From an uncultured Candidatus Saccharibacteria bacterium (GTDB lineage Bacteria; Patescibacteriota; Minisyncoccia; Minisyncoccales; GWA2-38-27): DNA of 53,662 nucleotides. Every line of letters starts with the position of its first letter. The stretch's first letter is position 1. A program made the position numbers and the translations under genes. Below the pieces are notes generated by a model. That model ran no database searches and was not told the DNA's origin. It worked only from the letters and a program-made list of their open reading frames with translations. The DNA lies in the NCBI GenBank assembly GCA_964493085.1, contig CAZBLV010000014.1, positions 1 to 53,662 of the forward strand. Reading direction: 5' to 3'. This document shows positions 1 to 10,845 of the stretch, one piece after another.

Positions 1-106
1 TGGATTAAAAAAATCGTTAATTTTAACAGCGAGTTCCATAAGTTACGGATTATTCATTGCGGGATTAATAGGAAAAATAATTAAAATTTGGTATGTGGGC
101 GATTGA
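1..106 (+). CDS. 3' end of a membrane protein gene (partial, runs off window)
   Basis: Frame 2 open from the edge: GLKKSLILTASSISYGLFIAGLIGKIIKIWYVGD*, hydrophobic helix; TGA 104-106. Confidence 0.4.
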   Translation, partial: GLKKSLILTASSISYGLFIAGLIGKIIKIWYVGD

Positions 107-185
107 AACAAAAAACCTGACCAAAGAATTCAACGGACTGAAAGCAGTTTTGCCGTTCTTCGGAAATAATTTCTCTTATAAATAG
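93..185 (+). pseudogene. N-terminal fragment of ABC transporter ATP-binding protein
   Basis: MWAIETKNLTKEFNGLKAV is a typical ABC ATPase N-terminus; similarity lost before Walker A, stop at 183-185. Confidence 0.6.
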
Positions 186-351: not shown

Positions 352-824
352 TGAGAAACAACCAAGAACCAATTTTTATTGCTACTGAGACTGATGCGCC
401 TCGTAGTAATATGCCCCTTGTAGAGCGCGAAGCAATCACTGCCATTGTTCGCGATCCTGGAACTAATAAATATCTTGGATTACGATGGAAAGAAGTAGAT
501 TGGGAAACCTTTATCACCGGAGGCGTGGAAAAAGGTCAAACTCCCGAAAAAGCTGCTCGTGTCGAGATTAGAGAAGAAAGCGGATACAAGAATCTTCGTC
601 TTGTATCAGAATTACCAAGATATCATTCTAAGTTTTATCATGCCCCAAAAGGCGTTAATCGTTTTGCCCACTTTCATTCTTTTCTTTTTGAATTAGAAAA
701 CAACGAACGAGAGCAGATTTCGTTAGATGAGAAGAAGAAACATGAATGTGTATGGCTTGATAAAGCAGAACTTAAACAGTTTCGGCTTCCAAAAGGGCAA
801 CGCTTTTTAATAGATTTGGTCTAG
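351..824 (+). CDS. NUDIX hydrolase
   Basis: Nudix box GGVEKGQTPEKAARVEIREESG; ATG 351 overlaps upstream TAA. Confidence 0.85.
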   Translation: MRNNQEPIFIATETDAPRSNMPLVEREAITAIVRDPGTNKYLGLRWKEVDWETFITGGVEKGQTPEKAARVEIREESGYKNLRLVSELPRYHSKFYHAPKGVNRFAHFHSFLFELENNEREQISLDEKKKHECVWLDKAELKQFRLPKGQRFLIDLV

Positions 825-845
825 CATTGTTTAATCCGCGGAGCT
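818..845 (+). repeat. Putative recombination site copy 1 (degenerate)
   Basis: GGTCTAGC-ATTGTTTAATCCGC-GGAGCT, same 8-14-6 spacing as other copies; overlaps NUDIX stop. Confidence 0.55.
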
Positions 846-898
846 ACGATTCCCTTTGAAATATGAGGGTCTTGTTTTTCTTGTGAAAGAAGTAAGTA

Positions 899-968
899 TT
901 GACAGTAGGTTTTGGTTTTGATAACATAACAATAGACACGCCTCAGCCAGCCGCAAGGTCCGCTGAGG
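899..968 (+). promoter_or_regulatory. sigma70 promoter and 5' leader hairpin of NYN gene
   Basis: TTGACA(899)-17-TAACAT with TGn; hairpin CCTCAGC(941-947)...GCTGAGG(962-968) ending 10 nt before ATG. Confidence 0.6.
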
Positions 969-978
969 TTCTGTTTTT

Positions 979-1575
979 ATGAAAACGATACTTTTTATAG
1001 ATGGACGTAATTTTATAGGTAAAATCAATTCTATTCTTAATCCTAAAGATAAAAAGGATAAGGAAATTGATTTCTCTATTTATGATCTTGAAGGTCTTTT
1101 GAATAAGGTGTTATCAGATATTAAAGTTGATCGGAAAATATTTTATATAGGTAGACTTATTAAACACAAAGAGACAAAAGAAAAATCTATTGAATTGATA
1201 GAAAAGCAAAGAAAATTAAAGAATCATTTAGAGAAGCAAGGATTCGAAGTTATCTATGCTGGTAGAGTTAGGGGTCATAGGGAGAGCTGTCCTAAGGGGC
1301 ATGAATTCCTAACGTTCAAAGAAAAAGGCGTAGATGTTAAGATTGCAGTTGATATGACTGCTTTAAGCCATAAGAAAGAGTTGAAGAGAGCCATTATCGG
1401 GAGCTCCGATTCTGATCTTCAGCCTGCAGTTAAGGAATTGAAAAACCAGGGTATAGAACAAATTTATCTTGGCTTCGAGACGCTACCCAATAAGGGATTA
1501 ACATATACTACCAATCGTACTATTTTAATTAGAAATTCTGAATTATCCGAATTCTTAGAGAAAACTCTACTTTGA
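979..1575 (+). CDS. NYN domain protein (LabA/DUF88 family)
   Basis: FIDGRNF, EKGVDVKIAVD, SSDSDLQP motifs. Confidence 0.9.
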   Translation: MKTILFIDGRNFIGKINSILNPKDKKDKEIDFSIYDLEGLLNKVLSDIKVDRKIFYIGRLIKHKETKEKSIELIEKQRKLKNHLEKQGFEVIYAGRVRGHRESCPKGHEFLTFKEKGVDVKIAVDMTALSHKKELKRAIIGSSDSDLQPAVKELKNQGIEQIYLGFETLPNKGLTYTTNRTILIRNSELSEFLEKTLL

Positions 1576-1588
1576 ATTTGTAAAACAG

Positions 1589-1616
1589 GTTCTAACGGCG
1601 TCCAGTACCCGGAGCA
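1589..1616 (+). repeat. Putative recombination site copy 2
   Basis: GTTCTAAC-GGCGTCCAGTACCC-GGAGCA, 13 nt after NYN stop. Confidence 0.75.
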
Positions 1617-1764
1617 GAGTGTCGGAAACGGGGCCTAAAGCCCTGTTTTTGTTTGTTTTTGTTCTAATCCTTGTTGGGTAAAAATATGTTATAATAATAA
1701 TTATAAATAGATTACATAGAGATAAACTTTTTGTTGATTTTTTTAACAAGCCTATTGTAATGTT

Positions 1765-2502
1765 ATGATAAATTTTTTGTTGATTTTTTTGATCGGTCTT
1801 GTTTCCGGTTTTTTAGGCGCAACTGTCGGTGGCGGAGGATTTATTTCTATTCCGGCCTTGATTTTTTTAGGTTTTACTCCCCAAATCTCTATCGCCTTGA
1901 ATAAAGTTGGGGATATCGGCACCTTTATTTCCGCTGTGAGTAAATATTGGAAATTTCATAAAATAGATTGGAATGTGGCTGGTATAATTATTGCTATTTA
2001 TTTTGTGGGCAGTTTAATAGGTACTCAAATTATGATTAATTTAAGTACTAATATTTTAGAAATATTAATAGTAATATCAATTTTATTAGCATTGCCTTTT
2101 ATTTTCATGAACAAAAAATTAGGCATTAAAGAAATAAAAGTTTCAAAAACCAGAAAAAGAATCGGTTTTATCCTTTTGTTTTTTCTATCAATTCTTGGCG
2201 CTATGATTGGCGCAGGAGGGGCAGTTCTTAGCACTCTAGTAATGATGTTATTTTTGGGTTATAAAATTATTGATGGTCACGCTACTACCACTCCTTCAAA
2301 ATTTTTTTCTGCCCTTATTCCTTCAATAATTTATTATTTTTATGGTTTCATAGAAGTATTACCGGCAATAATTATATTCATTGGCATGTTGATTGGCGGT
2401 TTTTTTGGAGCCAGAACGGCAACTTTAGAGGGTAATCGTTGGATAAAAAAGCTGTTTTTAGTAGTATTTGTATTTTTAGTTATAAAATTGATATTTTTTT
2501 AA
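1765..2502 (+). CDS. Sulfite exporter TauE/SafE (TSUP) family membrane protein
   Basis: GFLGATVGGGGFISIP and GAMIGAGG internal repeat; multi-TM; very AT-rich. Confidence 0.85.
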   Translation: MINFLLIFLIGLVSGFLGATVGGGGFISIPALIFLGFTPQISIALNKVGDIGTFISAVSKYWKFHKIDWNVAGIIIAIYFVGSLIGTQIMINLSTNILEILIVISILLALPFIFMNKKLGIKEIKVSKTRKRIGFILLFFLSILGAMIGAGGAVLSTLVMMLFLGYKIIDGHATTTPSKFFSALIPSIIYYFYGFIEVLPAIIIFIGMLIGGFFGARTATLEGNRWIKKLFLVVFVFLVIKLIFF

Positions 2503-2548
2503 TTTTAAATTTAATGAGGTATTTTGGTTTAATGATTTAAAACAAATA

Positions 2549-2576
2549 GTTCTAATCTCATCCACGACTTCGAGCA
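2549..2576 (+). repeat. Putative recombination site copy 3
   Basis: GTTCTAAT-CTCATCCACGACTT-CGAGCA. Confidence 0.7.
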
Positions 2577-2678
2577 TAATTTTTGATTAACCTCCAAAGA
2601 AGCCACTCTCTAAAGCGGTTTTATTATTTGAGAACAAAAGCACTTTTACAATATTTTCAGAAAGAAAGGATAAATAAA

Positions 2679-2723
2679 ATGGCAAAGAAAAAAAGAAAAG
2701 AAGCGATTTGGAAGAAAAATTAA
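2679..2723 (+). CDS. 14-aa basic micro-ORF MAKKKRKEAIWKKN
   Basis: SD AAAGGA in leader AGAAAGAAAGGATAAA (also present before 4067); terminator follows at 2728-2754. Confidence 0.35.
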   Translation: MAKKKRKEAIWKKN

Positions 2724-2770
2724 TATAGTTGCTGTTTTTTAACAGCGGCTTTTTGTTGTATAATTTTGAT

Positions 2771-3202
2771 ATGAGCAATAATAAGCCAAAATTAATGAGT
2801 GCCTGTCTTTTGGGTGTAAAATGTAGGTGGGACGCAAAGTTTAAACCTTGTGAAAAGGCAATTAAGCTTTTTAAACAAGGCAATGCTATTCTTGTTTGTC
2901 CTGAGCAATTAGGAGGGTTGCCTACTCCAAGAATACCTCAAGAGATTCAAAAAGACGGCAGAGTAGTAAATAAAGAAGGCAAGGACGTAACAGAGAACTT
3001 CAAAAAGGGAGCTGAAGAAACCTTGAGAATAGCGAAACTTTTGGGAGTAAAAGAGTTTATCGGAAAATCAAAAAGCCCTTCTTGCGGTTTTGGTAAAACT
3101 TATGACGGAACATTTTCTGGTACCCTAATAGATGGCAACGGGATCATAGCAGATCTTTTGTCTAAAAATGGAATTAAAGTAATAACCGAGAAAGACTTAT
3201 AG
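2771..3202 (+). CDS. DUF523 family protein (thiouracil desulfidase TudS-like)
   Basis: SACLLGVKCRWD, VCPEQLGGLPTPR, KSKSPSCG. Confidence 0.9.
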   Translation: MSNNKPKLMSACLLGVKCRWDAKFKPCEKAIKLFKQGNAILVCPEQLGGLPTPRIPQEIQKDGRVVNKEGKDVTENFKKGAEETLRIAKLLGVKEFIGKSKSPSCGFGKTYDGTFSGTLIDGNGIIADLLSKNGIKVITEKDL

Positions 3203-3254
3203 AGAGATTTTATTAAAAATATCTAAATTTTGCTGTATTTTATTCCAATCAGTA

Positions 3255-3283
3255 GTTCTAAGCGTGTCCAGTAGGGGGGAGCA
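3255..3283 (+). repeat. Putative recombination site copy 4
   Basis: GTTCTAAG-CGTGTCCAGTAGGGG-GGAGCA; one extra G in the G-run. Confidence 0.7.
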
Positions 3284-3374
3284 AACGCTTAATCAATAAT
3301 TTGCCTTGATTTGTTTGGGTTTTTATTTTTCAATGTAGGTGTGGTAGGATAAAAAAGAGATAATACGTAAACCC

Positions 3375-3815
3375 ATGAAAGGAAAAAGAAAAAATTGCTT
3401 TTTCTGTGATATCCAGAAGGAGACAAAAGACAAAAAAGTTATTGCTGACAATAAATATTTTTTCTCGAGATACGATGATTTTCCTGTAGCTTCTGGACAT
3501 TGTGAGTTGGTAATTAAAGATCATAAACCTTCTTTTTTCGATTTGACAGAAGAAGAACTGTCTTCTTTTTTTGAATTATTGAATAAAACGAAAAAAATAA
3601 TAGATAGAAAGTTTAAACCGGATGGCTATAATATCGGTATAAATGAAGGATTAGCGGCTGGCAGAACTCAGGATCATCTACATGTTCATTTTATCCCTCG
3701 TTACTTCAATGATGTTAAAAATCCTAGAGGCGGTGTCAGAAATATCATCTCCGAGAAAGCGGATTACATCCCTTTGGCGAGGGAAATGCCCTCAAGGAGG
3801 AAATACGTAGAATAA
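3375..3815 (+). CDS. HIT family hydrolase
   Basis: CFFC, GYNIGINEGLAAG, HLHVHFIPR. Confidence 0.92.
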   Translation: MKGKRKNCFFCDIQKETKDKKVIADNKYFFSRYDDFPVASGHCELVIKDHKPSFFDLTEEELSSFFELLNKTKKIIDRKFKPDGYNIGINEGLAAGRTQDHLHVHFIPRYFNDVKNPRGGVRNIISEKADYIPLAREMPSRRKYVE

Positions 3816-3852
3816 TAAAAAAAGTCTCTCTAGAATTCTTCCCTTAGATGGA

Positions 3853-3876
3853 GTCCGAGATCAGTTTGGGGAGCCA
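3853..3876 (+). repeat. Putative recombination site copy 5 (tRNA-3'-end-like variant)
   Basis: GTCCGAGATC-AGTTTGG-GGAGCCA; 17-nt offset equals tRNA G53-to-70 spacing; followed by CTTAATCAATA as in copy 4 and a hairpin at ~3890-3915. Confidence 0.5.
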
Positions 3877-3988
3877 CTTAATCAATACCAAAACCCCTGA
3901 TTTACTCAGGGTTTTTGTTTTGATCAACAGGGTGTGGCAGAATAAGAAAAAGATAAAACTTAATTATCATAAAATTACAAAAAGCGTG

Positions 3989-4017
3989 TTGACAGAAACA
4001 ACTTATCGTGATAAAAT
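3989..4017 (+). promoter_or_regulatory. sigma70 promoter
   Basis: TTGACA-17-TAAAAT with extended TGn. Confidence 0.7.
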
Positions 4018-4066
4018 ATAAAGTGTTCTTTTGGCAATAGGGACCTCAAGAAAGAAAGGATAAAAA

Positions 4067-4342
4067 ATGCCAAACGTAGAGATCCACGGTGTTGCCGATC
4101 CGAAGGCCAGAGAACTAAGGGATCGTGTTTTCGATCTCTTCTCCCAGGCGTCGTTTGTCGAAGAGATGGTGGTGACCATTTTTGCGACGGCGGTCACTGA
4201 CAGGCGGGGGTCCTGCCAGCCGTTTATAAGGTTGGTTAATTCTGATCCAGGACTTAATCTGGAAATAGTCCCCGGCCTCAAGAAATTGGGTCTGGACATA
4301 GAGGTGCTTGCCCTCGTCGCTTTTCATCCCAAGAACAGCTAA
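4067..4342 (+). CDS. Hypothetical protein, possible tautomerase-fold (Pro-1)
   Basis: Starts MPNVEIHG; strong SD; own promoter and terminator; GC-richer than flanks. Confidence 0.6.
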   Translation: MPNVEIHGVADPKARELRDRVFDLFSQASFVEEMVVTIFATAVTDRRGSCQPFIRLVNSDPGLNLEIVPGLKKLGLDIEVLALVAFHPKNS

Positions 4343-4348
4343 CCGCAA

Positions 4349-4384
4349 AGCCCTCTTAATCACAAGATTAAGAGGGCTCTTTTT
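4349..4384 (+). terminator. Rho-independent terminator (near-duplicate at 9040)
   Basis: AGCCCTCTTAATC-ACAA-GATTAAGAGGGCT then CTTTTT. Confidence 0.85.
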
Positions 4385-4395
4385 ATACCAAACAA

Positions 4396-4424
4396 GTTCT
4401 AACATCGTTCAGAGTTCGGAGCCA
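4396..4424 (+). repeat. Putative recombination site copy 6
   Basis: GTTCTAAC-ATCGTTCAGAGTTC-GGAGCCA. Confidence 0.75.
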
Positions 4425-4474
4425 AAATTAACTTTGATGTTCGCAAGATTATAACAAGGGTAGAAATATATTAG

Positions 4475-4702
4475 AAGACAAAGATATTCAAAATTGAAGA
4501 AGCAGTATCTCTTATCTTAACTTTTGTTTTCGCTTTTTCTTTTATTATTTCCGTTGTTCGCAGCACTGTTTCTTATTTCAGAAAAGGAAAACCGAAAGAC
4601 TTGTGGAAGCTCGGTTTTTTAGGATTGCTGGGGCTGCTTGGACTAGTCGCAACGCCTGGATTTTACGGCCTCGGCTTTTTTGGAGCAAGAAGCTGGAAAT
4701 AA
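4475..4702 (+). pseudogene. 5'-truncated membrane protein, paralog of 14283-14645
   Basis: KIEEAV...KPKDLWKLGFLG versus KVEEAI...MPEDIWKLGFLG; TAG at 4472 and no ATG. Confidence 0.65.
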
Positions 4703-4862
4703 TAAAATCGCTCGCCTATTAGCTTTGATTGATTAACCGTTTAAGCGCGGTAATATTTTTTATAAAACATTGACAGACAGCCATCTTTATATTATCATCC
4801 AATCGCTTGCAGCGCAGGGTTGCATTTTCAGTTCCTTTACAAAGAAAGAAGGAGAAAAAAGC

Positions 4863-5039
4863 ATGCAGATATTGGGCGCAATATTGGGCGTGATTGTGGT
4901 GACGATATTTTCGATCATTATTTCAGAAGGATATCCTCCAGAAAAACTGAAAGAGAGCAGGTGTCCCTTCTGTGGCGCTCCCGTTAGGGAAAGCGATCAG
5001 ATTTGCGGAAATTGCGGTTATCGGTTAGATTCTCAATGA
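4863..5039 (+). CDS. Small membrane-anchored zinc-ribbon protein
   Basis: SD AAGGAG, N-terminal TM, CPFCG...CGNCG; terminator at ~5056-5085. Confidence 0.7.
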   Translation: MQILGAILGVIVVTIFSIIISEGYPPEKLKESRCPFCGAPVRESDQICGNCGYRLDSQ

Positions 5040-5125
5040 ATGTTTATAATTTTAAGACCTGGGAGAATTTCCCGGGTCCTTTTTTATTTTAAAAACTTAT
5101 TCAAGAGCTCTTGGATTATTAACAC

Positions 5126-5155
5126 TTGACAGAATACCCTAAGGGGGTATATACT
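5126..5155 (+). promoter_or_regulatory. Promoter with CsoR/CstR-type operator
   Basis: TTGACA...TATACT enclosing ATACCC-TAAGG-GGGTAT (5134-5150). Confidence 0.85.
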
Positions 5156-5181
5156 TTTAGAATTGACTGACCAGCAACAAC

Positions 5182-5430
5182 ATGAGAAAAAATACAACAA
5201 TCCAGCGTCTGCATATTGTTAAAGGGCAAGTCGATGGCTTAATCAACCTTATAGAAAAGCAAGAGGACTGCCGTAAGATAACAGAACAGTTTTATGCAGT
5301 AAATGCAGGCCTAAAAACGGCAATTGAATCATATTTCAAGAAAAATCTGTCTTCTTGCTTGCAGTCCGTTAACCTAAAAAAAAGAAGAACAATAGAGTTT
5401 TTGTTAAAAGAAATAGTTAAAAATAAATAG
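5182..5430 (+). CDS. CsoR/RcnR-family repressor (CstR-like)
   Basis: RLHIVKGQVDG..EDC..NLSSC; Asn at the His ligand position. Confidence 0.85.
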   Translation: MRKNTTIQRLHIVKGQVDGLINLIEKQEDCRKITEQFYAVNAGLKTAIESYFKKNLSSCLQSVNLKKRRTIEFLLKEIVKNK

Positions 5431-5435
5431 TTTTT

Positions 5436-5762
5436 ATGTCCGAATTAACTTTAACTGACCAAAATTTTTCAGAAGAAGTTTTAAAAAGCCAAAAGCCGAT
5501 TTTGGTTGATTTCTGGGCGGAATGGTGCATGCCTTGCCAGATAATAGCCCCGATTCTTCAGGAAATTGCCGAGGAGTTTGGCGAGAAAATAATAATTGGC
5601 AAGCTTGACGTTGATAAAAACCCTTTGATTTCAGCCACTTTTTCGATAGATGCGATACCGGCCTTGATCTTGTTTAAAGACGGAAAGATAGTGCGGCGGT
5701 TTACGGGCGTTCAGGCCAGAAAAATTATTGCAGAAGCGGTCGAATCTGTTATTGAGAAATAA
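5436..5762 (+). CDS. trxA: Thioredoxin
   Basis: VDFWAEWCMPC, cis-Pro motif AIP. Confidence 0.92.
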   Translation: MSELTLTDQNFSEEVLKSQKPILVDFWAEWCMPCQIIAPILQEIAEEFGEKIIIGKLDVDKNPLISATFSIDAIPALILFKDGKIVRRFTGVQARKIIAEAVESVIEK

Positions 5763-5771
5763 GGTTGTTTT

Positions 5772-6581
5772 ATGGATAAAGAAATTAACAAGATTACTAT
5801 CTTTCCCGGAATAAACAAGTTCGGGAAAAAAGAGAATTTCGAGAAAATTCATATTAAGAAAGGGGAGGTAGTCGCTGTTGTCGGGCACACGGGGGCGGGT
5901 AAGAGCCAGCTTCTTTATGATCTTGAGAGACTGGCCCAAAAAGACACTAAAAGCAAAAGACAAATTTTAGTTAATAACAGGATTCCGGGCAAAGAACTAA
6001 GATTTAATCCGAAAAGAAAGATGATTGCCTCCCTGGCGCAAAGTATGAACTTTTTTACTGATATGTCTGTTGAAGATTTTCTGCAACTGCACCTAGAATC
6101 TCGAGGGAGAAAATCGAAAAGAGGATTAATTGAAGAAGTGATAAAGGAAGCCAATGAAATTACCGGTGAAGCCATTTCTTCTCGAATGAACTTACTTAAC
6201 CTTTCTGGTGGCCAAAGCAGAGCCCTAATGGTTTCTGATGTAGCCAACATTAGTATTTCGCCCGTTATTTTAATTGATGAGATAGAAAATGCAGGTATTA
6301 AAAAAGAACAAGCGATTAAAATTCTGGTAGAAGAAGGAAAGATTGTTTTGATTGTTACCCATGATCCCTCTTTGGCGTTAAACGCTGACAAAAGAATCAT
6401 TATTAAAGACGGCGGCATTGTTAAGGTTTTAAATACCTCTCTGAAAGAAAAAGGAATCGCCCACTATCTTAACTGGATAGAAAATTACGGTTTGGATATA
6501 AGGGAAAAAATAAGGAAAGGCCTGGAAATTAATAATATAGAAATATATTGCGAGCCGATCAAGCCAAAAAAACAAGCATGA
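5772..6581 (+). CDS. Soluble ABC-type ATPase
   Basis: GHTGAGKS, LSGGQSRA, LIDE, VTHD; no permease adjacent. Confidence 0.85.
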   Translation: MDKEINKITIFPGINKFGKKENFEKIHIKKGEVVAVVGHTGAGKSQLLYDLERLAQKDTKSKRQILVNNRIPGKELRFNPKRKMIASLAQSMNFFTDMSVEDFLQLHLESRGRKSKRGLIEEVIKEANEITGEAISSRMNLLNLSGGQSRALMVSDVANISISPVILIDEIENAGIKKEQAIKILVEEGKIVLIVTHDPSLALNADKRIIIKDGGIVKVLNTSLKEKGIAHYLNWIENYGLDIREKIRKGLEINNIEIYCEPIKPKKQA

Positions 6582-7378
6582 AATTTATAATTTTTGCAGG
6601 GACTCCGGGTTCGGGCAAAACAAGTATAATTAAACACATAATCCAAGAGCTTAAAAAAGACTTTAAATTGTTTTTTGCCAAATTTGATTGTTTGCAAACA
6701 TCAGACGACGAGCGAATCGCTGAAGAATATAAAATATCGACCGTAAAAAAACTAGCCGGAGAACTTTGTCCTGACCACTATACTGCCCTGGAAATACCGA
6801 AAATAATTAAAGAGAATCAGGACAAGGATATTATTATTTTAGAAACTGCCGGCTTATGCCTTCGCTGTTCTCCATACATTGAAGAAGGATTGGGGATTAA
6901 TGTTTTGGATACTACTTCCGGAGAGCCTTCCCGCTACGGGCCAATTTTAACCGAGGCAGACGTTATAGCTATCAGTAAAGGAGACTTGATTTCTCAAGCA
7001 GAAAGAGAGATTTTCAGGGCAAAAGTTTTAAAAGCCAACCCCGGGGCAAAAATAGCAGAAGTTAACGGGCTCACGGGAGAAGGAGCTATTGATATAGTAG
7101 AATTCATAAAAGAATCTCCAGTTGTTAAAAGCGGAAAGTTGACGCTAAAACATTCTATGCCTTCGGCGATTTGCGGATACTGTTACGGAAACAAGATAAT
7201 TGACGAAAAGGAAACGCAAAAAAGGTATTTGGCCGGCAAAGAATTGAAAAATTTGGTTCCTAATTTAAACTGCGGGAAATGCGGCTTTAAGTCGTGCAAT
7301 GAATTTATAAGGGCGGTTTTGGACGGAAAGGCTAAAAAAGAGCAATGCCCGTTCATTAAGCAGAAAATGATGAAATAA
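6578..7378 (+). CDS. HypB/UreG/CobW-like GTPase with C-terminal Fe-S domain
   Basis: GTPGSGKT, LCPDH, ETAGLCLRCSP, SKGD; C-terminal PNLNCGKCGFKSC...CP. Confidence 0.82.
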   Translation: MKFIIFAGTPGSGKTSIIKHIIQELKKDFKLFFAKFDCLQTSDDERIAEEYKISTVKKLAGELCPDHYTALEIPKIIKENQDKDIIILETAGLCLRCSPYIEEGLGINVLDTTSGEPSRYGPILTEADVIAISKGDLISQAEREIFRAKVLKANPGAKIAEVNGLTGEGAIDIVEFIKESPVVKSGKLTLKHSMPSAICGYCYGNKIIDEKETQKRYLAGKELKNLVPNLNCGKCGFKSCNEFIRAVLDGKAKKEQCPFIKQKMMK

Positions 7379-7383
7379 AGAGT

Positions 7384-7629
7384 ATGCCGTGGATAAATCA
7401 AGATAAATGCATTGGATGCGGAGTTTGTGTTGACGCTTGTCCTGTTGGGGCTATTTCAATTAAAGAAGGCAAGGCAGTTATTGATCAGGACAAATGCATA
7501 AAATGTGGAAAATGCTTAAATGTCTGTCCCCAAAAAGCCATTCGGCCAAATTCTGAAAACACCGGATTAAAAAGGCACAGATTTGGCAACAGAAGAAAAA
7601 GATTTGGCTTTGGCAGAAAAAAACTATAA
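7384..7629 (+). CDS. 2x[4Fe-4S] ferredoxin with basic tail
   Basis: Two CxxCxxCxxxCP motifs. Confidence 0.9.
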   Translation: MPWINQDKCIGCGVCVDACPVGAISIKEGKAVIDQDKCIKCGKCLNVCPQKAIRPNSENTGLKRHRFGNRRKRFGFGRKKL

Positions 7630-7647
7630 TTTAGATTATTCTAACTT

Positions 7648-7923
7648 ATGCCAGAAGACAAAAAAGCCTTTGAGCAGTTGGTTAAAAAAAGCAAGGATTA
7701 TGCAGAGAGAAACGGATTTCGTTTAAATCCAAACACTAAAATTGTAAATTATTTAATTAAGGCCTTGTTGGAACGGGAAAAAAAATACGGCAAAAGATAT
7801 TGCCCTTGCCGTCGTGTCAAGGAAAGCCAGGAAGAAAATAACAAAATTATTTGTCCTTGCGTTTATTGCAAAGAAGAAATAAAAAGAGACGGCCACTGCC
7901 ATTGTTTCTTGTTTGTAAAATAA
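7648..7923 (+). CDS. Ferredoxin:thioredoxin reductase catalytic subunit
   Basis: CPC...CPC...CHC motifs. Confidence 0.9.
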   Translation: MPEDKKAFEQLVKKSKDYAERNGFRLNPNTKIVNYLIKALLEREKKYGKRYCPCRRVKESQEENNKIICPCVYCKEEIKRDGHCHCFLFVK

Positions 7924-7935
7924 TTAAACAAAAAT

Positions 7936-8115
7936 ATGAGCAAATTTAAAATCGATAAATCAAAATGTGCCGGCTGCGGAGCCTGCCTCAATGCTTGCCC
8001 TTATGGCGCAATTAAAATCGGAGAAGACGGCAAGGCGGTTATAGATAAAGAAAAGTGCCAAGGTTGCGGGAAATGCAAGGAAATATGTCCTTTTGACGCA
8101 ATATCAGAAGAATAA
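7936..8115 (+). CDS. 2x[4Fe-4S] ferredoxin (59 aa, not in ORF track)
   Basis: [26 protein letters not shown]...[19 protein letters not shown]. Confidence 0.9.
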
Positions 8116-8141
8116 GCGAAAACAAAATCTTTGTTAAGCAA

Positions 8142-8170
8142 GTTTTAACATATCCTATTTAGCGGAGCCA
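8142..8170 (+). repeat. Putative recombination site copy 7
   Basis: GTTTTAAC-ATATCCTATTTAGC-GGAGCCA, 26 nt after operon end. Confidence 0.65.
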
Positions 8171-8208
8171 AGATCTTTTTAAGATAGGGATTTTACATTA
8201 ATGAAAGG

Positions 8209-8237
8209 TTGACAAATTAAGACCATTATGATAAAAT
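8209..8237 (+). promoter_or_regulatory. sigma70 promoter
   Basis: TTGACA-17-TAAAAT with TGn; same -35 and TGATAAAATATA as at 3989. Confidence 0.7.
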
Positions 8238-8289
8238 ATAGGCAGTTTTTTGATAATTTAAGAACTTATAGAACCTGGAAAGGAAAGAA

Positions 8290-9033
8290 ATGGACGATCT
8301 GGCAAGAAAAAAACTGGGAAAGAAGTATGAACTCGTCGGTCTTTTTTCAGAAGACTTGGCCGCGGTCAAAAAGAACGATCTGTGGTTCCATGCCCGTCCC
8401 GACGGCAAGCCTGCCTATCGGGAGAGGTACGACTTTGCCGGCCCCTTCTCCGAGGGGATGGCTGTAGCCCGAAAGAATGATCGATGGTTCCACATCCGTC
8501 CCGACGGCAAGCCAGCCTATGAGGAGAGATACGACTTTGCCGATATCTTCTCCGAGGGCTTGGCTGCGGTCCAGCGGGGCAAAAAGTGGTTCCACATCCG
8601 CCCCGACGGCGCTCCTGCTTATCAGGAAAGATACGACTTTGTCGGTCCTTTCTCCGGAGGCCTGGCTCAAGCTCGGGAGGGTATCTGGTGGTTCCACATC
8701 CGCCCCGACGGCAAGCCAGCCTATGAGGAGAGGTACGACTTTGTTAATCTCTTCTTCGAAGGTCTGGCTCCGGCCGAAAAGGGGGGCGGAAGGTTCCACA
8801 TCCGTCCCGACGGCGCCCCTGTTTATCAGGAGAGATACGACTTTGTCGATTCTTTCTCCGGAGGCCTGGCTGTAGCCCGGAAGAATGATCGATGGTTCCA
8901 CATCCGTCCCGACGGCAAGCCAGCCTATGAGGAGAGATACGACCTTGTCAGCTCTTTCTCGAGAGGCCTGGCTCCGGCCCGAAGAGACGGCCGATGGTTC
9001 TACATCCGCCCCGACGGCGTTTGGGCAGGGTGA
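8290..9033 (+). CDS. WG-repeat-like protein, ~7 tandem 34-aa (102-bp) repeats
   Basis: Unit FSEGLAxxxxxxxWFHIRPDGxPAYxERYD; TGGTTC at 8383 and 8485; GC-rich. Confidence 0.85.
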   Translation: MDDLARKKLGKKYELVGLFSEDLAAVKKNDLWFHARPDGKPAYRERYDFAGPFSEGMAVARKNDRWFHIRPDGKPAYEERYDFADIFSEGLAAVQRGKKWFHIRPDGAPAYQERYDFVGPFSGGLAQAREGIWWFHIRPDGKPAYEERYDFVNLFFEGLAPAEKGGGRFHIRPDGAPVYQERYDFVDSFSGGLAVARKNDRWFHIRPDGKPAYEERYDLVSSFSRGLAPARRDGRWFYIRPDGVWAG

Positions 9034-9039
9034 TATCAA

Positions 9040-9076
9040 AGCCCTCTTAATCTGAAAGATTAGGAGGGCTCTTTTT
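9040..9076 (+). terminator. Rho-independent terminator (near-duplicate of 4349)
   Basis: AGCCCTCTTAATC-TGAAA-GATTAGGAGGGCT then CTTTTT. Confidence 0.85.
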
Positions 9077-9087
9077 ATGCCAAGCAG

Positions 9088-9105
9088 GTTCTAATATCGT
9101 CCAGT
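9088..9105 (+). repeat. Putative recombination site copy 8 (left half only)
   Basis: GTTCTAATATCGTCCAGT, GGAGC half missing; followed by a start-less gene fragment. Confidence 0.65.
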
Positions 9106-9131
9106 AAAAAACTGAGAATTTATGTAACTAG

Positions 9132-9439: not shown

Positions 9440-9895
9440 ATGGAAAAGCTAGAGCTTGCTAAAGAAGAGCTTAATGCTTTAACTAGAATGATAGAAGAGC
9501 TTTTAGGAAGCAATAGAAGTCTTGCGTTGGTGTCTGGCCATAGTATCGGCACTTTTATTCGAATTTATGAGTTTTTAGAGCGCTGGGAAAAACTGGGGGA
9601 AATATGGGAAAGTTTGGGCCTTTTGAAATTTTACGCTCCAGAATTAGTTCGAGCCGCTGAATTTTATGAAAAAGCGGGGATGTTAGAGAAGGCTCTGGAG
9701 CTTTACAAAAAAGGGGCGGAAAAGTGTATGCCGGACAGAGTTATGGTTTATGACGAAAATACTGGTGGTGGAGTGTCTGCGATGTCTTATCTCGGAAATG
9801 AAAACCTGCTGGAAGAGGCAGAAAAATTGGTTGGTAAGTGCGAAAGAAAGATAAAAGAGCTTAATTCCCGTCTAGAAAAGGAGGTGAGACCATGA
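9440..9895 (+). CDS. Hypothetical helical (TPR/SNAP-like) protein
   Basis: RAAEFYEKAGMLEKALELYKK; ATGA overlap with next gene. Confidence 0.6.
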   Translation: MEKLELAKEELNALTRMIEELLGSNRSLALVSGHSIGTFIRIYEFLERWEKLGEIWESLGLLKFYAPELVRAAEFYEKAGMLEKALELYKKGAEKCMPDRVMVYDENTGGGVSAMSYLGNENLLEEAEKLVGKCERKIKELNSRLEKEVRP

Positions 9896-10845
9896 ACGAT
9901 ATTGATTTTGATCAAAAAAGAGACCTATTGTTCGCCCTAGAGAAAGTAGTGAGAGAAACAGGAGAAGAATTGCTGACCCGGCGGGGTACTGAAATTTTCG
10001 ATACCACCGACTACAAAGGTCACGAATCTTCAATTATTGACACTTTCGCTCGCGAAAGAATGCAAGCAGCTCTTGATCGCCATTTACCCGAGCTAGAAGG
10101 AATAGTGCGGTTTGAGCTAAGGCCTTTTAGCAAGACCCTTATTGAAGCAAAAGAACACCAGAATTTTGTTTTAATTATCGACGAAATTGAAGGAACGACT
10201 AACACAAAACGCTGCTTGTCTTCAGACTTAAAGTACAGACCTCCATCTCTTGTTTCTTTGGCGCTTAGCACTAGCGAGAGCTTGAGAGATCTTGTTTTAG
10301 GGGTGGTTTTTACCCTTGATCAAAGCGAAATCTTTTCAGCGCTTTGCGTTAGCGATGGCAATTTCCTGACTTTTCATGAAGGGCAGTTAATCCAGCCCTC
10401 TTCTGTAGCGAACACAAGAGGCGATAGCCGCAAAAGAATTTTAGTAGTAGGATATTCTAACAGCCATCGTATTCTGAAAGGAGAGGTTGAACAGGCACTT
10501 TACGATAAGAGACTAAAGGTCTATGATGGTTGCCGTGCTTCCGGTATGGATATTATTAATCTGTTGCGCAACGCCACAGATGCTTACGTCGATTTAAGGC
10601 ATTATTGGTCGACCAAAGACGAAGAGGGTGAAGAAAAAGAGGCAATGCTTCAAGTTTATGATATCGCCGGGGTTATCCCCATCGCCGAAGGCTGCGGGAT
10701 GGAAGTAACTGACGCTGAAGGAAGATCTTGGCGAGAGTATAGCCTGGAAGATACCGTCCCGCTGGTTGTCTCTAGGCCCGACATACACAAGCTGATTCTA
10801 GATACCATTAAGCCGTTTGTGGAGAAATGGAAAAAATCGGGATAA
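9892..10845 (+). CDS. Divergent inositol monophosphatase/FIG-superfamily phosphatase
   Basis: IIDEIEGTTN (cf. DPIDGT), YDIAG, GMEVTDAEG. Confidence 0.75.
   Translation: MNDIDFDQKRDLLFALEKVVRETGEELLTRRGTEIFDTTDYKGHESSIIDTFARERMQAALDRHLPELEGIVRFELRPFSKTLIEAKEHQNFVLIIDEIEGTTNTKRCLSSDLKYRPPSLVSLALSTSESLRDLVLGVVFTLDQSEIFSALCVSDGNFLTFHEGQLIQPSSVANTRGDSRKRILVVGYSNSHRILKGEVEQALYDKRLKVYDGCRASGMDIINLLRNATDAYVDLRHYWSTKDEEGEEKEAMLQVYDIAGVIPIAEGCGMEVTDAEGRSWREYSLEDTVPLVVSRPDIHKLILDTIKPFVEKWKKSG

Follow-up and report, generated by a model that had tools for sequence, protein, structure and literature searches.

A putative integron-like cassette array bounded by a conserved, oriented site of about 34 nt in Patescibacteria

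The attC sites of integrons range from 57 to 141 nt, and their inverse core and core sites pair with each other (RYYYAAC ... GTTRRRY). The IMEX elements at dif and the pdif modules of Acinetobacter plasmids are bounded by sites of about 28 bp and have no recombinase of their own; pdif modules alternate in orientation, and the chromosomal dif is single and lies at the terminus. Elements of the IS200/IS605 and REP/RAYT kinds have strand-specific, non-palindromic ends with small hairpins near the cut, and insert in one orientation. Here, we analyze the region 818–9106 of contig CAZBLV010000014.1 (53.7 kb; the whole contig is hereafter called the window), which belongs to the 603-kb genome of an uncultured Candidatus Saccharibacteria bacterium (G000; the window contig plus 13 others). 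In this region, small co-oriented gene units are separated by copies of a short oriented site. With a probability of about 50%, we interpret it as a mobile, integron-like cassette array that has a new conserved oriented site of about 34 nt, no linked integrase, and a putative enzyme acting in trans.

Such arrays resemble integrons in being long co-oriented series of one- or two-gene units, each of which ends in a recombination-type repeat, in having the apparent junction at the 3′ edge of the repeat and fixed places in the chromosome, and in a content of small accessory genes that are mixed in composition (Nudix, HIT, NYN, and unknown ones). They differ in that the site is asymmetric and conserved in sequence, whereas attC is an imperfect palindrome conserved in structure; in that there is neither an integron integrase nor an attI next to an integrase gene; in that most cassettes start with a terminator and have a promoter of their own; and in a distribution centered on Patescibacteria.

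With the Xer modules (IMEX, pdif), the arrays share short sites of about 28 bp that bound small gene modules with no recombinase in or near them, as well as a housekeeping Xer-type recombinase in the array-bearing genomes checked, with the exception of G059 (93% complete). In contrast to the Xer modules, the 11-6-11 dyad of dif is absent here, only TCC-N7-GGA being symmetric; many copies, all direct, lie at one or two chromosomal loci; and the site is found in only 23 of 61 relatives, although Xer is universal. The features shared with IS200/IS605 and REP/RAYT elements are strand-specific non-palindromic ends, hairpins near the cut, a single orientation beside a fixed sequence, and the absence of both target duplications and inverted terminal repeats. 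Here, however, several array-bearing genomes (two of them complete) lack a Y1 transposase, the cargo consists of ordinary genes, and the copies are clustered rather than dispersed. The literature covered, which did not extend to subscription journals and supplementary files, yielded no account of this site or of arrays of this kind in Patescibacteria.

The site in the window and in other genomes

The window was scanned first with the pattern GTTCTAAY-N14-SGAGCM of the original prediction, along with 100 dinucleotide-preserving shuffles. Exact matches are located at 1589–1616, 2549–2576, and 4396–4423, all on the + strand (0.00 expected from the shuffles), and the site at 8142–8169 is added when one mismatch is allowed. 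At up to three mismatches there are 12 matches versus 17.7 expected by chance, and hence the copy at 818–845, which has three mismatches and overlaps the stop codon of a Nudix gene, is not significant on the pattern alone. A position weight matrix (PWM; reporting threshold 10) built from the sites of relatives gives 41.9, 25.0, and 38.2 for the three exact matches, 13.4 for 3255, and 14.9 for 818; nothing else in the window scores 10 or more.

The full site at 3255–3283 fits the pattern given one extra base in the variable part (29 nt). In the degenerate site at 8142 (PWM below 10), both ends are kept and the middle has diverged. At 3850–3877 (PWM also below 10), the left octamer is lost and the right part kept, the support coming mainly from a by-eye likeness of the downstream flank to that of 3255. 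The array is closed by a left half-site at 9088–9106, which retains positions 1–19 and then diverges; together with its terminator (9056–9104) it repeats 4364–4412 with 88% identity over 49 nt. All these copies, too, lie on the + strand. Thus, the copies originally listed hold at 1589, 2549, and 4396 (exact), 3255 (one base longer), 8142 (degenerate), and 9088 (half), while those at 818 and 3850 are weak.

Every copy in the window lies 0–55 nt past a stop codon, and those at 4396 and 9088 each lie 18 nt past a strong terminator hairpin, in keeping with the predicted placement at gene ends. The successive site-to-site spacings are 771, 960, 706, 595, 546, 3746, and 946 bp, matching the unit lengths first stated, including the 3.7-kb unit. 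The array starts less than 0.8 kb from the contig end. No same-orientation copies had originally been noted in the core region (11–47 kb), and no comparable site was indeed found in the window at 11–53 kb or in the 13 other contigs.

The consensus of 230 unique sites is AAAnAG-GTTCTAAC-nTYG-TYCA-N6-GGAGCM (about 34 nt), with about 20 of 28 positions near-invariant. The full-site pattern was found in 14 of 61 related genomes (none with the reversed-pattern control), and the left-half pattern in 23 of 61 (control, 3). Among 401 genomes sampled evenly over the phylum, 22 contain the full-site pattern (control, 1). A scan of one genome per prokaryotic species yielded at least 120 contigs with the site, mostly from Patescibacteria of many classes. 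Some of the metagenome-assembled genomes (MAGs) among the contigs listed bear other labels, which, like the binning, may be wrong: Gammaproteobacteria, Actinomycetota, Ignavibacteriales, Elusimicrobiota, Omnitrophota, Eiseniibacteriota (a closed 2.7-Mb chromosome), and Woesearchaeota. In a collection of viral contigs, the site is present in one stretch of 2.9 million. The copies of a genome form one or two islands, and do so only in a minority of related genomes; as proposed, the hits in G000 and its relatives are clustered in arrays and not spread through core intergenic DNA. In one chromosome of 55–58% GC, single sites follow large ordinary genes.

The symmetry of the site is minimal. A dyad scan of the 230 sites gave as best centers only GTT-CT-AAC and TCC-N7-GGA, with a mean complementarity of 0.37–0.44 over 12 steps. 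As regards attC, a complement of the left 12 nt within 110 nt downstream was detected at p ≤ 0.05 for 5 of 51 sites, one of them strong (11/12); one gapped inverted copy was seen by eye. As regards dif, there are no two inverted arms of about 11 bp around a center of 6–8 bp, only GTT/AAC and TCC/GGA being symmetric, and the copies are many and clustered. The claim that the site is neither attC nor dif is supported. It is also very improbable that the array is an ordinary integron remnant, i.e., a cluster of attC sites without an integrase (CALIN). Co-oriented small accessory genes with a repeat after each would agree with such an origin, as would the left octamer, which we take to resemble the attC inverse core RYYYAAC. 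However, the inverted partner is missing, the units bear their own promoters, and the sole tyrosine recombinase of the genome reaches only 80.6 bits with the integron integrase model, the cut-off being 265.

In one subtype (88 of 230 sites), the middle of the site can form a hairpin of 4–5 bp with many G-T pairs, on the gene sense strand only. In an alignment of 22 sequences, 93.6% of cells pair, whereas sliding the partner gives 20–62%. Of 500 column shuffles, 364 also reach 93.6%, and so the hairpin shows no covariation above that of shuffles. Rfam 15 scans of the window and 18 loci at gathering thresholds gave only tRNAs, with nothing at the sites at E-values up to 5. A 3′ fragment of tRNA or tmRNA was rejected by eye, ARAGORN and Rfam being empty at the sites. 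Long-range pairing of an upstream YTCC with GGAG, found at only 63 of 230 sites, reflects subtype-specific flanks. The hairpin subtype has a conserved upstream stretch of about 42 nt, and the opposite strand of this stretch carries a ribosome-binding site and a frame of eight codons (MSIFTSQI-like; L052 1268–1309, L094 2164–2205, and about 20 other loci). Codon 9 of the frame is TGA, TAA, or TAG in most loci and TGG or TGT in L157 and L110; the frame varies mostly at second codon positions.

These observations bear on the main rival explanation, namely, that the site is a cis-acting element of the 3′ end of the upstream gene, either an RNA motif (for processing, stability, or protein binding) or a DNA termination signal, and that the arrays are ordinary gene-flux islands in which the site is not recombined. 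A hairpin that fits only the gene sense strand agrees with such an element, and so do the single sites behind large ordinary genes. On the other hand, there is no matching Rfam family, the hairpin covaries no better than shuffles, and the approximately 20 near-invariant positions are fixed in sequence, not in structure. Constancy of the sequence across phyla without covariation points to recognition by a protein.

Arrangement of the arrays and breaks of homology at the sites

In 29 loci with at least three sites, 139 of 140 sites are co-oriented. The spacing in these loci has a median of 813 bp (10–90% range 321–2133 bp; full range 55–6730 bp), and such intervals hold open reading frames (ORFs) with promoters, for which reason a CRISPR array was rejected, although cas genes were not searched for. 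The closed 516-kb chromosome of G063 has two arrays, at 31–37 kb (− strand) and 311–317 kb (+ strand), and the closed 689-kb chromosome of G064 has one, at about 650–667 kb. By PWM, these arrays contain 9–15 sites; neighboring sites are separated by one or two small genes in the same orientation, and each array is flanked by ordinary housekeeping genes. Several arrays are situated downstream of dnaG-rpoD (the RpoD cluster occurs in 11 loci), and tRNA-Asn precedes several. By manual count, 13 of the 20 sites in relatives are no more than 5 kb away from a contig end, which fits strain-variable regions. With their sites near contig ends and the GC content of units ranging from 27 to 59%, the array regions look hypervariable, and since many MAG contigs break at arrays, the latter help to explain assembly gaps.

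By crude ORF calling, 163 of 210 sites follow the stop codon of a co-oriented ORF, at a median distance of 61 nt. The remaining 47 have no preceding co-oriented ORF: in 36 cases, the site adjoins the 5′ end of an ORF in the opposite orientation, and in 11, an ORF of at least 50 aa is missing within 250 nt. A terminator-like hairpin starts within 45 nt after the site in 85 of 230 cases, mostly at 5–15 nt, and ends within 45 nt before it in 25 of 230. The 50 nt after the site fold better than their neighbors (mean z of −1.8, versus −0.9 before the site and −0.5 further on). Many units then bear an extended −10 promoter, so that the typical unit consists of hairpin, promoter, gene or genes, and site. 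A module of about 45 nt, composed of a terminator hairpin and a TGGTAGAAT-type promoter, recurs, itself at least 80% identical, behind the sites of genomes from different families (e.g., L024 8753–8800, L116 385–340, L021 5761–5810); it assorts independently of the site.

The usual place between stop codon and terminator keeps a role in RNA or termination alive, and the better folding past the site also speaks for such a role. Three types of sites are at odds with it. Firstly, the 25 sites behind a terminator would not be transcribed with the gene. Secondly, gene-less pairs of sites about 55–76 nt apart are found (L023 1873/1931 and 6898/6974, L055 658/713, L071 6319/6252, L159 9055/9000), as are half-sites in which the left 14–19 nt alone are retained. 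Thirdly, there are the 47 sites not preceded by a co-oriented ORF. All of these are hard to explain as the 3′ end of a gene, and the second and third types favor a role at the DNA level. That the element keeps to one or two islands in a genome, and that only a minority of relatives have it, also counts against a 3′-end element, which we consider unlikely and yet the strongest of the competing explanations.

Comparison of loci reveals that homology breaks at the sites. From just past their sites onward, L021 and L081 share 94.7% identity over 798 bp, while the upstream DNA is unrelated and the site subtypes differ. The segment L023 6626–6893, which spans one site to 5 nt short of the next, is 91% identical to its counterpart in L155; the gene-plus-site unit of L069 is found again in L028; and the two arrays of G063 share paralogous units (83–90% identity). 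The DUF523 and NYN families of the window recur elsewhere as gene-plus-site units: the G064 homologue of the DUF523 protein (58% identity) has a site 23 nt downstream of its gene, and an NYN homologue (28% identity) has one 15 nt downstream. In a separate case, a Patescibacteria genome (L033 7536–8397) and a MAG labeled Woesearchaeota (L118 392–1271) share an 880-bp block at 81% identity; the block adjoins a site in both and is inverted relative to the site in one. Either an inter-domain transfer or a binning error may account for it.

Homology ends between different genomes fall within −10 to +45 of a site in 37 of 264 cases, compared with 6.1 ± 2.4 for random positions (maximum 15 in 500 trials), where the control positions were all positions, not only intergenic ones, and the loci had been preselected for holding sites. 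The ends peak at positions 27–28 and −5 to −7 relative to the site. The variable 7 nt were compared in pairs of sites from different loci. Of 22 pairs in which only the left flanks are similar, 18 match at five or more of the 7 positions; of 14 pairs with only the right flanks similar, 10 match at two or fewer, as in random pairs. The variable 7 nt therefore travel with the left flank, which places the junction at the 3′ edge of the site, at GGAGC or immediately past it; a part that travels with the upstream gene also suits a 3′-end element.

The site is conserved, oriented, and constrained in sequence, it is confined to co-oriented arrays of small accessory units with their own expression signals, its distribution is patchy, and homology breaks at its edges. 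We infer that it is a recombination site with exchange at its 3′ edge by an enzyme supplied in trans. A cassette would then extend from just past the GGAGC of one site through the end of the next, and would usually comprise one or two genes with a promoter of the cassette's own, preceded by a terminator-like hairpin and followed by the site. A trans-acting site-specific enzyme would insert and lose such cassettes, with strand exchange at or next to the variable 6–7 nt and the GGAGC block.

Candidate enzymes and the weighing of the readings

No recombinase was found in the window, as originally noted, and in particular no PF00589 (tyrosine recombinase) match. The genome has a single PF00589 match, on contig C1, and three PF00239 (serine recombinase) matches, on C2, C5, and C13. 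The PF00589 protein of G000 scores 223 bits with the XerC model and 219 bits with the XerD model, both below the equivalog cut-offs; judging from these scores and from that with the integron integrase model, it is XerC/XerD-like and not an integron integrase. One PF00589 protein each, encoded far from the arrays, is present in G000, G019, G057, G042, G063, and G064, and none was found in G059.

No known recombinase family tracks the arrays except for the universal Xer-like protein. Of the relatives, 15 of 24 with the site and 12 of 37 without it have serine recombinases, a weak co-occurrence that is confounded by kinship, and an att site of a large serine recombinase was rejected because the recombinase is not present wherever the sites are. 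A reverse transcriptase was found in only two (G057 and G063) of four genomes tested. Clustering of 1129 ORFs (at least 120 aa) from 138 site loci revealed products of neighboring housekeeping genes (RpoD, DnaG, ABC ATPases), methylases, and Fic proteins, and no enriched recombinase; a phmmer search of the same ORFs with the Xer-like protein of G000 gave no matches. The Xer-like tyrosine recombinase, as the only classical recombinase common to the array-bearing genomes checked, is therefore a candidate, albeit a weak one, and its action on the site seems rather improbable. The putative enzyme might be this lone Xer-like protein or, equally possibly, a member of an unrecognized family or one supplied by transient elements.

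The large serine recombinase genes of G000 (C5:1–949, C2:30036–31685, C13:130351–131935) are situated at contig ends, next to tRNA-Asn, tRNA-Ile, and tRNA-Ala, and probably belong to integrated elements that break the assembly. The gene on C5, cut at the contig break, follows rpoD and tRNA-Asn, where arrays start in other genomes. A junction of the left end of the window with C5 was not supported, since window positions 90–180 are LivG-like and have no similarity to recombinases. In L104, identical 58-nt inverted repeats (3482–3539 and 4368–4425), each with a site-like variant containing a palindromic GTTCGAAC, enclose about 830 bp and adjoin a large serine recombinase gene (1790–3367); this stretch may be an invertible segment.

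An HUH or similar transposase would be required if the site marked the end, or served as the target, of small selfish repeats in intergenic DNA (MITE, REP, or IS200/IS605 kind) that are moved in trans as single-stranded DNA and pile up in permissive islands, with the genes between copies as bystanders. The site is indeed asymmetric, strand-specific, and non-palindromic, one subtype has a small hairpin about 8 nt before the apparent junction, and a hairpin often follows 5–15 nt past it. The sites are co-oriented with positive GC skew, so that the folding strand would be the lagging-strand template, and the 45-nt terminator-promoter module follows sites in many genomes. Y1 transposase (PF01797) genes were identified in G019, G042, and G059, but there are none in the array-bearing G000 and G057 or in the complete G063 and G064. 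Moreover, the site and the downstream module assort independently, and the copies occupy one or two loci per genome instead of being scattered. We regard this explanation as distinctly improbable, less so than an integron remnant; a still smaller share of the probability than the selfish repeat receives is left to all other readings.

Several observations weigh against a mobile cassette array. A conserved element at gene ends would itself yield part of the breakpoint enrichment, which is to that extent expected, and a site that was simply the final conserved portion of a gene 3′ end would give rise to the same breakpoint statistics. The prevalence of sites after a co-oriented stop, with a terminator-like hairpin then following in many cases, fits a transcribed element of the 3′ untranslated region equally well, and the minimal dyad symmetry is unlike the core of a classical tyrosine recombinase site. 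The 138 site loci hold no tyrosine recombinase matches and five serine recombinase matches. For the complete genomes with large arrays (G063 and G064), the lack of a Y1 transposase is joined by that of any serine recombinase above the cut-off; no serine recombinase above the cut-off was found in G057 or G059 either. Direct signs of movement were looked for as well. Among 143 loci there is no pair of an empty and an occupied locus. The predicted circular units were not seen either: Logan contigs of two runs holding the region, both probably the source of the window DNA, have no joints at sites, and the joints 2697>9337 and 2707>7239 in these contigs were discounted because their sides are 20–21 nt in A-rich sequence. 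One of the contigs extends 868 nt past the left end of the window. For comparison at the strain level, the same-genus genome G001 contains only an orthologue of 9892–10845, on a 5975-bp contig that ends 550 bp beyond, and a metagenome scan with the protein of 9892–10845 found no relative. Of the proposed analogy with integrons, what stands is the conserved site, the co-oriented arrays, the absence of a nearby integrase, and the homology breaks; no recombination event was seen.

A broader proposal, which we put forward tentatively and hold to be somewhat doubtful, is that a separate system serves for cassette capture in Patescibacteria and in some other uncultured lineages. Either an enzyme from a family so far not recognized as recombinases or a repurposed Xer would cut and join the 3′ edge of the site, building integron-sized arrays of self-expressed cassettes, often downstream of dnaG-rpoD-tRNA-Asn. 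In these ultra-small, host-dependent bacteria, recognizable mobile elements are few, and the routes by which accessory genes are acquired and exchanged are poorly understood. Should the mobile-cassette reading be true, arrays that can be found by one short motif would offer a direct handle on gene flux in these lineages, and would constitute a second, independent answer to the problem solved by integrons, with a different site chemistry and possibly with a new sequence-specific DNA enzyme or a new use of Xer. If the enzyme is new, the system would be categorically new; otherwise it belongs with the known site-bounded gene-cassette arrays. Even as a mere RNA signal or termination signal, the site would count as an element that is conserved across phyla and has not been described.

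Genes of the window array

All units of the window array are on the + strand, and their gene assignments in the original prediction were reproduced by Pfam for the NYN, TauE, DUF523, HIT, and WG-repeat genes; the exception is the 91-aa “Pro-1” protein, which has no Pfam match. The first unit (846–1588) contains a terminator-like hairpin (852–869), a promoter-like site (899–927), and an NYN-domain gene (979–1575). The second (1617–2548; GC about 27–32%) has a terminator at 1623–1651, a lone left octamer at 1661–1668, and a TauE/SafE permease gene at 1765–2502. It is followed by a unit (2577–3254) with a gene of the DUF523/2-thiouracil desulfurase family (2771–3202) and by one (3284–3849) with a HIT-family gene (3375–3815). 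The fifth unit (3878–4395; GC about 50%) consists of a terminator (3895–3911), a promoter (3989–4017), the gene for the 91-aa protein (4067–4342), and a second terminator (4349–4378).

The 3.7-kb unit (4424–8141), within which no PWM match of 10 or more was found, starts with a zinc-ribbon gene (4863–5039) that has its own promoter and terminator. The operon that follows (5182–8115) encodes a CsoR-like repressor, a thioredoxin, an ABC ATPase, a CobW-type NTPase with an Fe-S domain, a ferredoxin, the beta (catalytic) chain of ferredoxin-thioredoxin reductase, and another ferredoxin, a redox and metal gene set unusual for so small a genome. The last unit (8170–9087; GC 59%) comprises a promoter (8209–8237), a WG-repeat gene (8290–9033), and a terminator (9040–9070).

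Sharp differences in GC content between units and the presence of own promoters and terminators in several of them had also been noted, and both are evident. The GC content ranges from 27% (TauE) to 59% (WG repeat), the contig being at about 40%. Promoter-like sites matching 10–11 of 12 positions are located at 899, 3989, 4770, 5126, and 8209, and terminator-like hairpins at 852, 1623, 3895, 4349, 5056, and 9040. The WG-repeat gene, with a GC content of 59% in a genome of about 40%, looks recently acquired; it consists of seven tandem 102-nt units that are 63–81% identical to reference copies.

At the left border of the array, window positions 90–180 (frame 3) resemble the N-terminus of a LivG-type ABC ATPase. 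The frame stops after about 30 codons and is probably a gene remnant. The array of G064 likewise begins after livG/livF-like genes.

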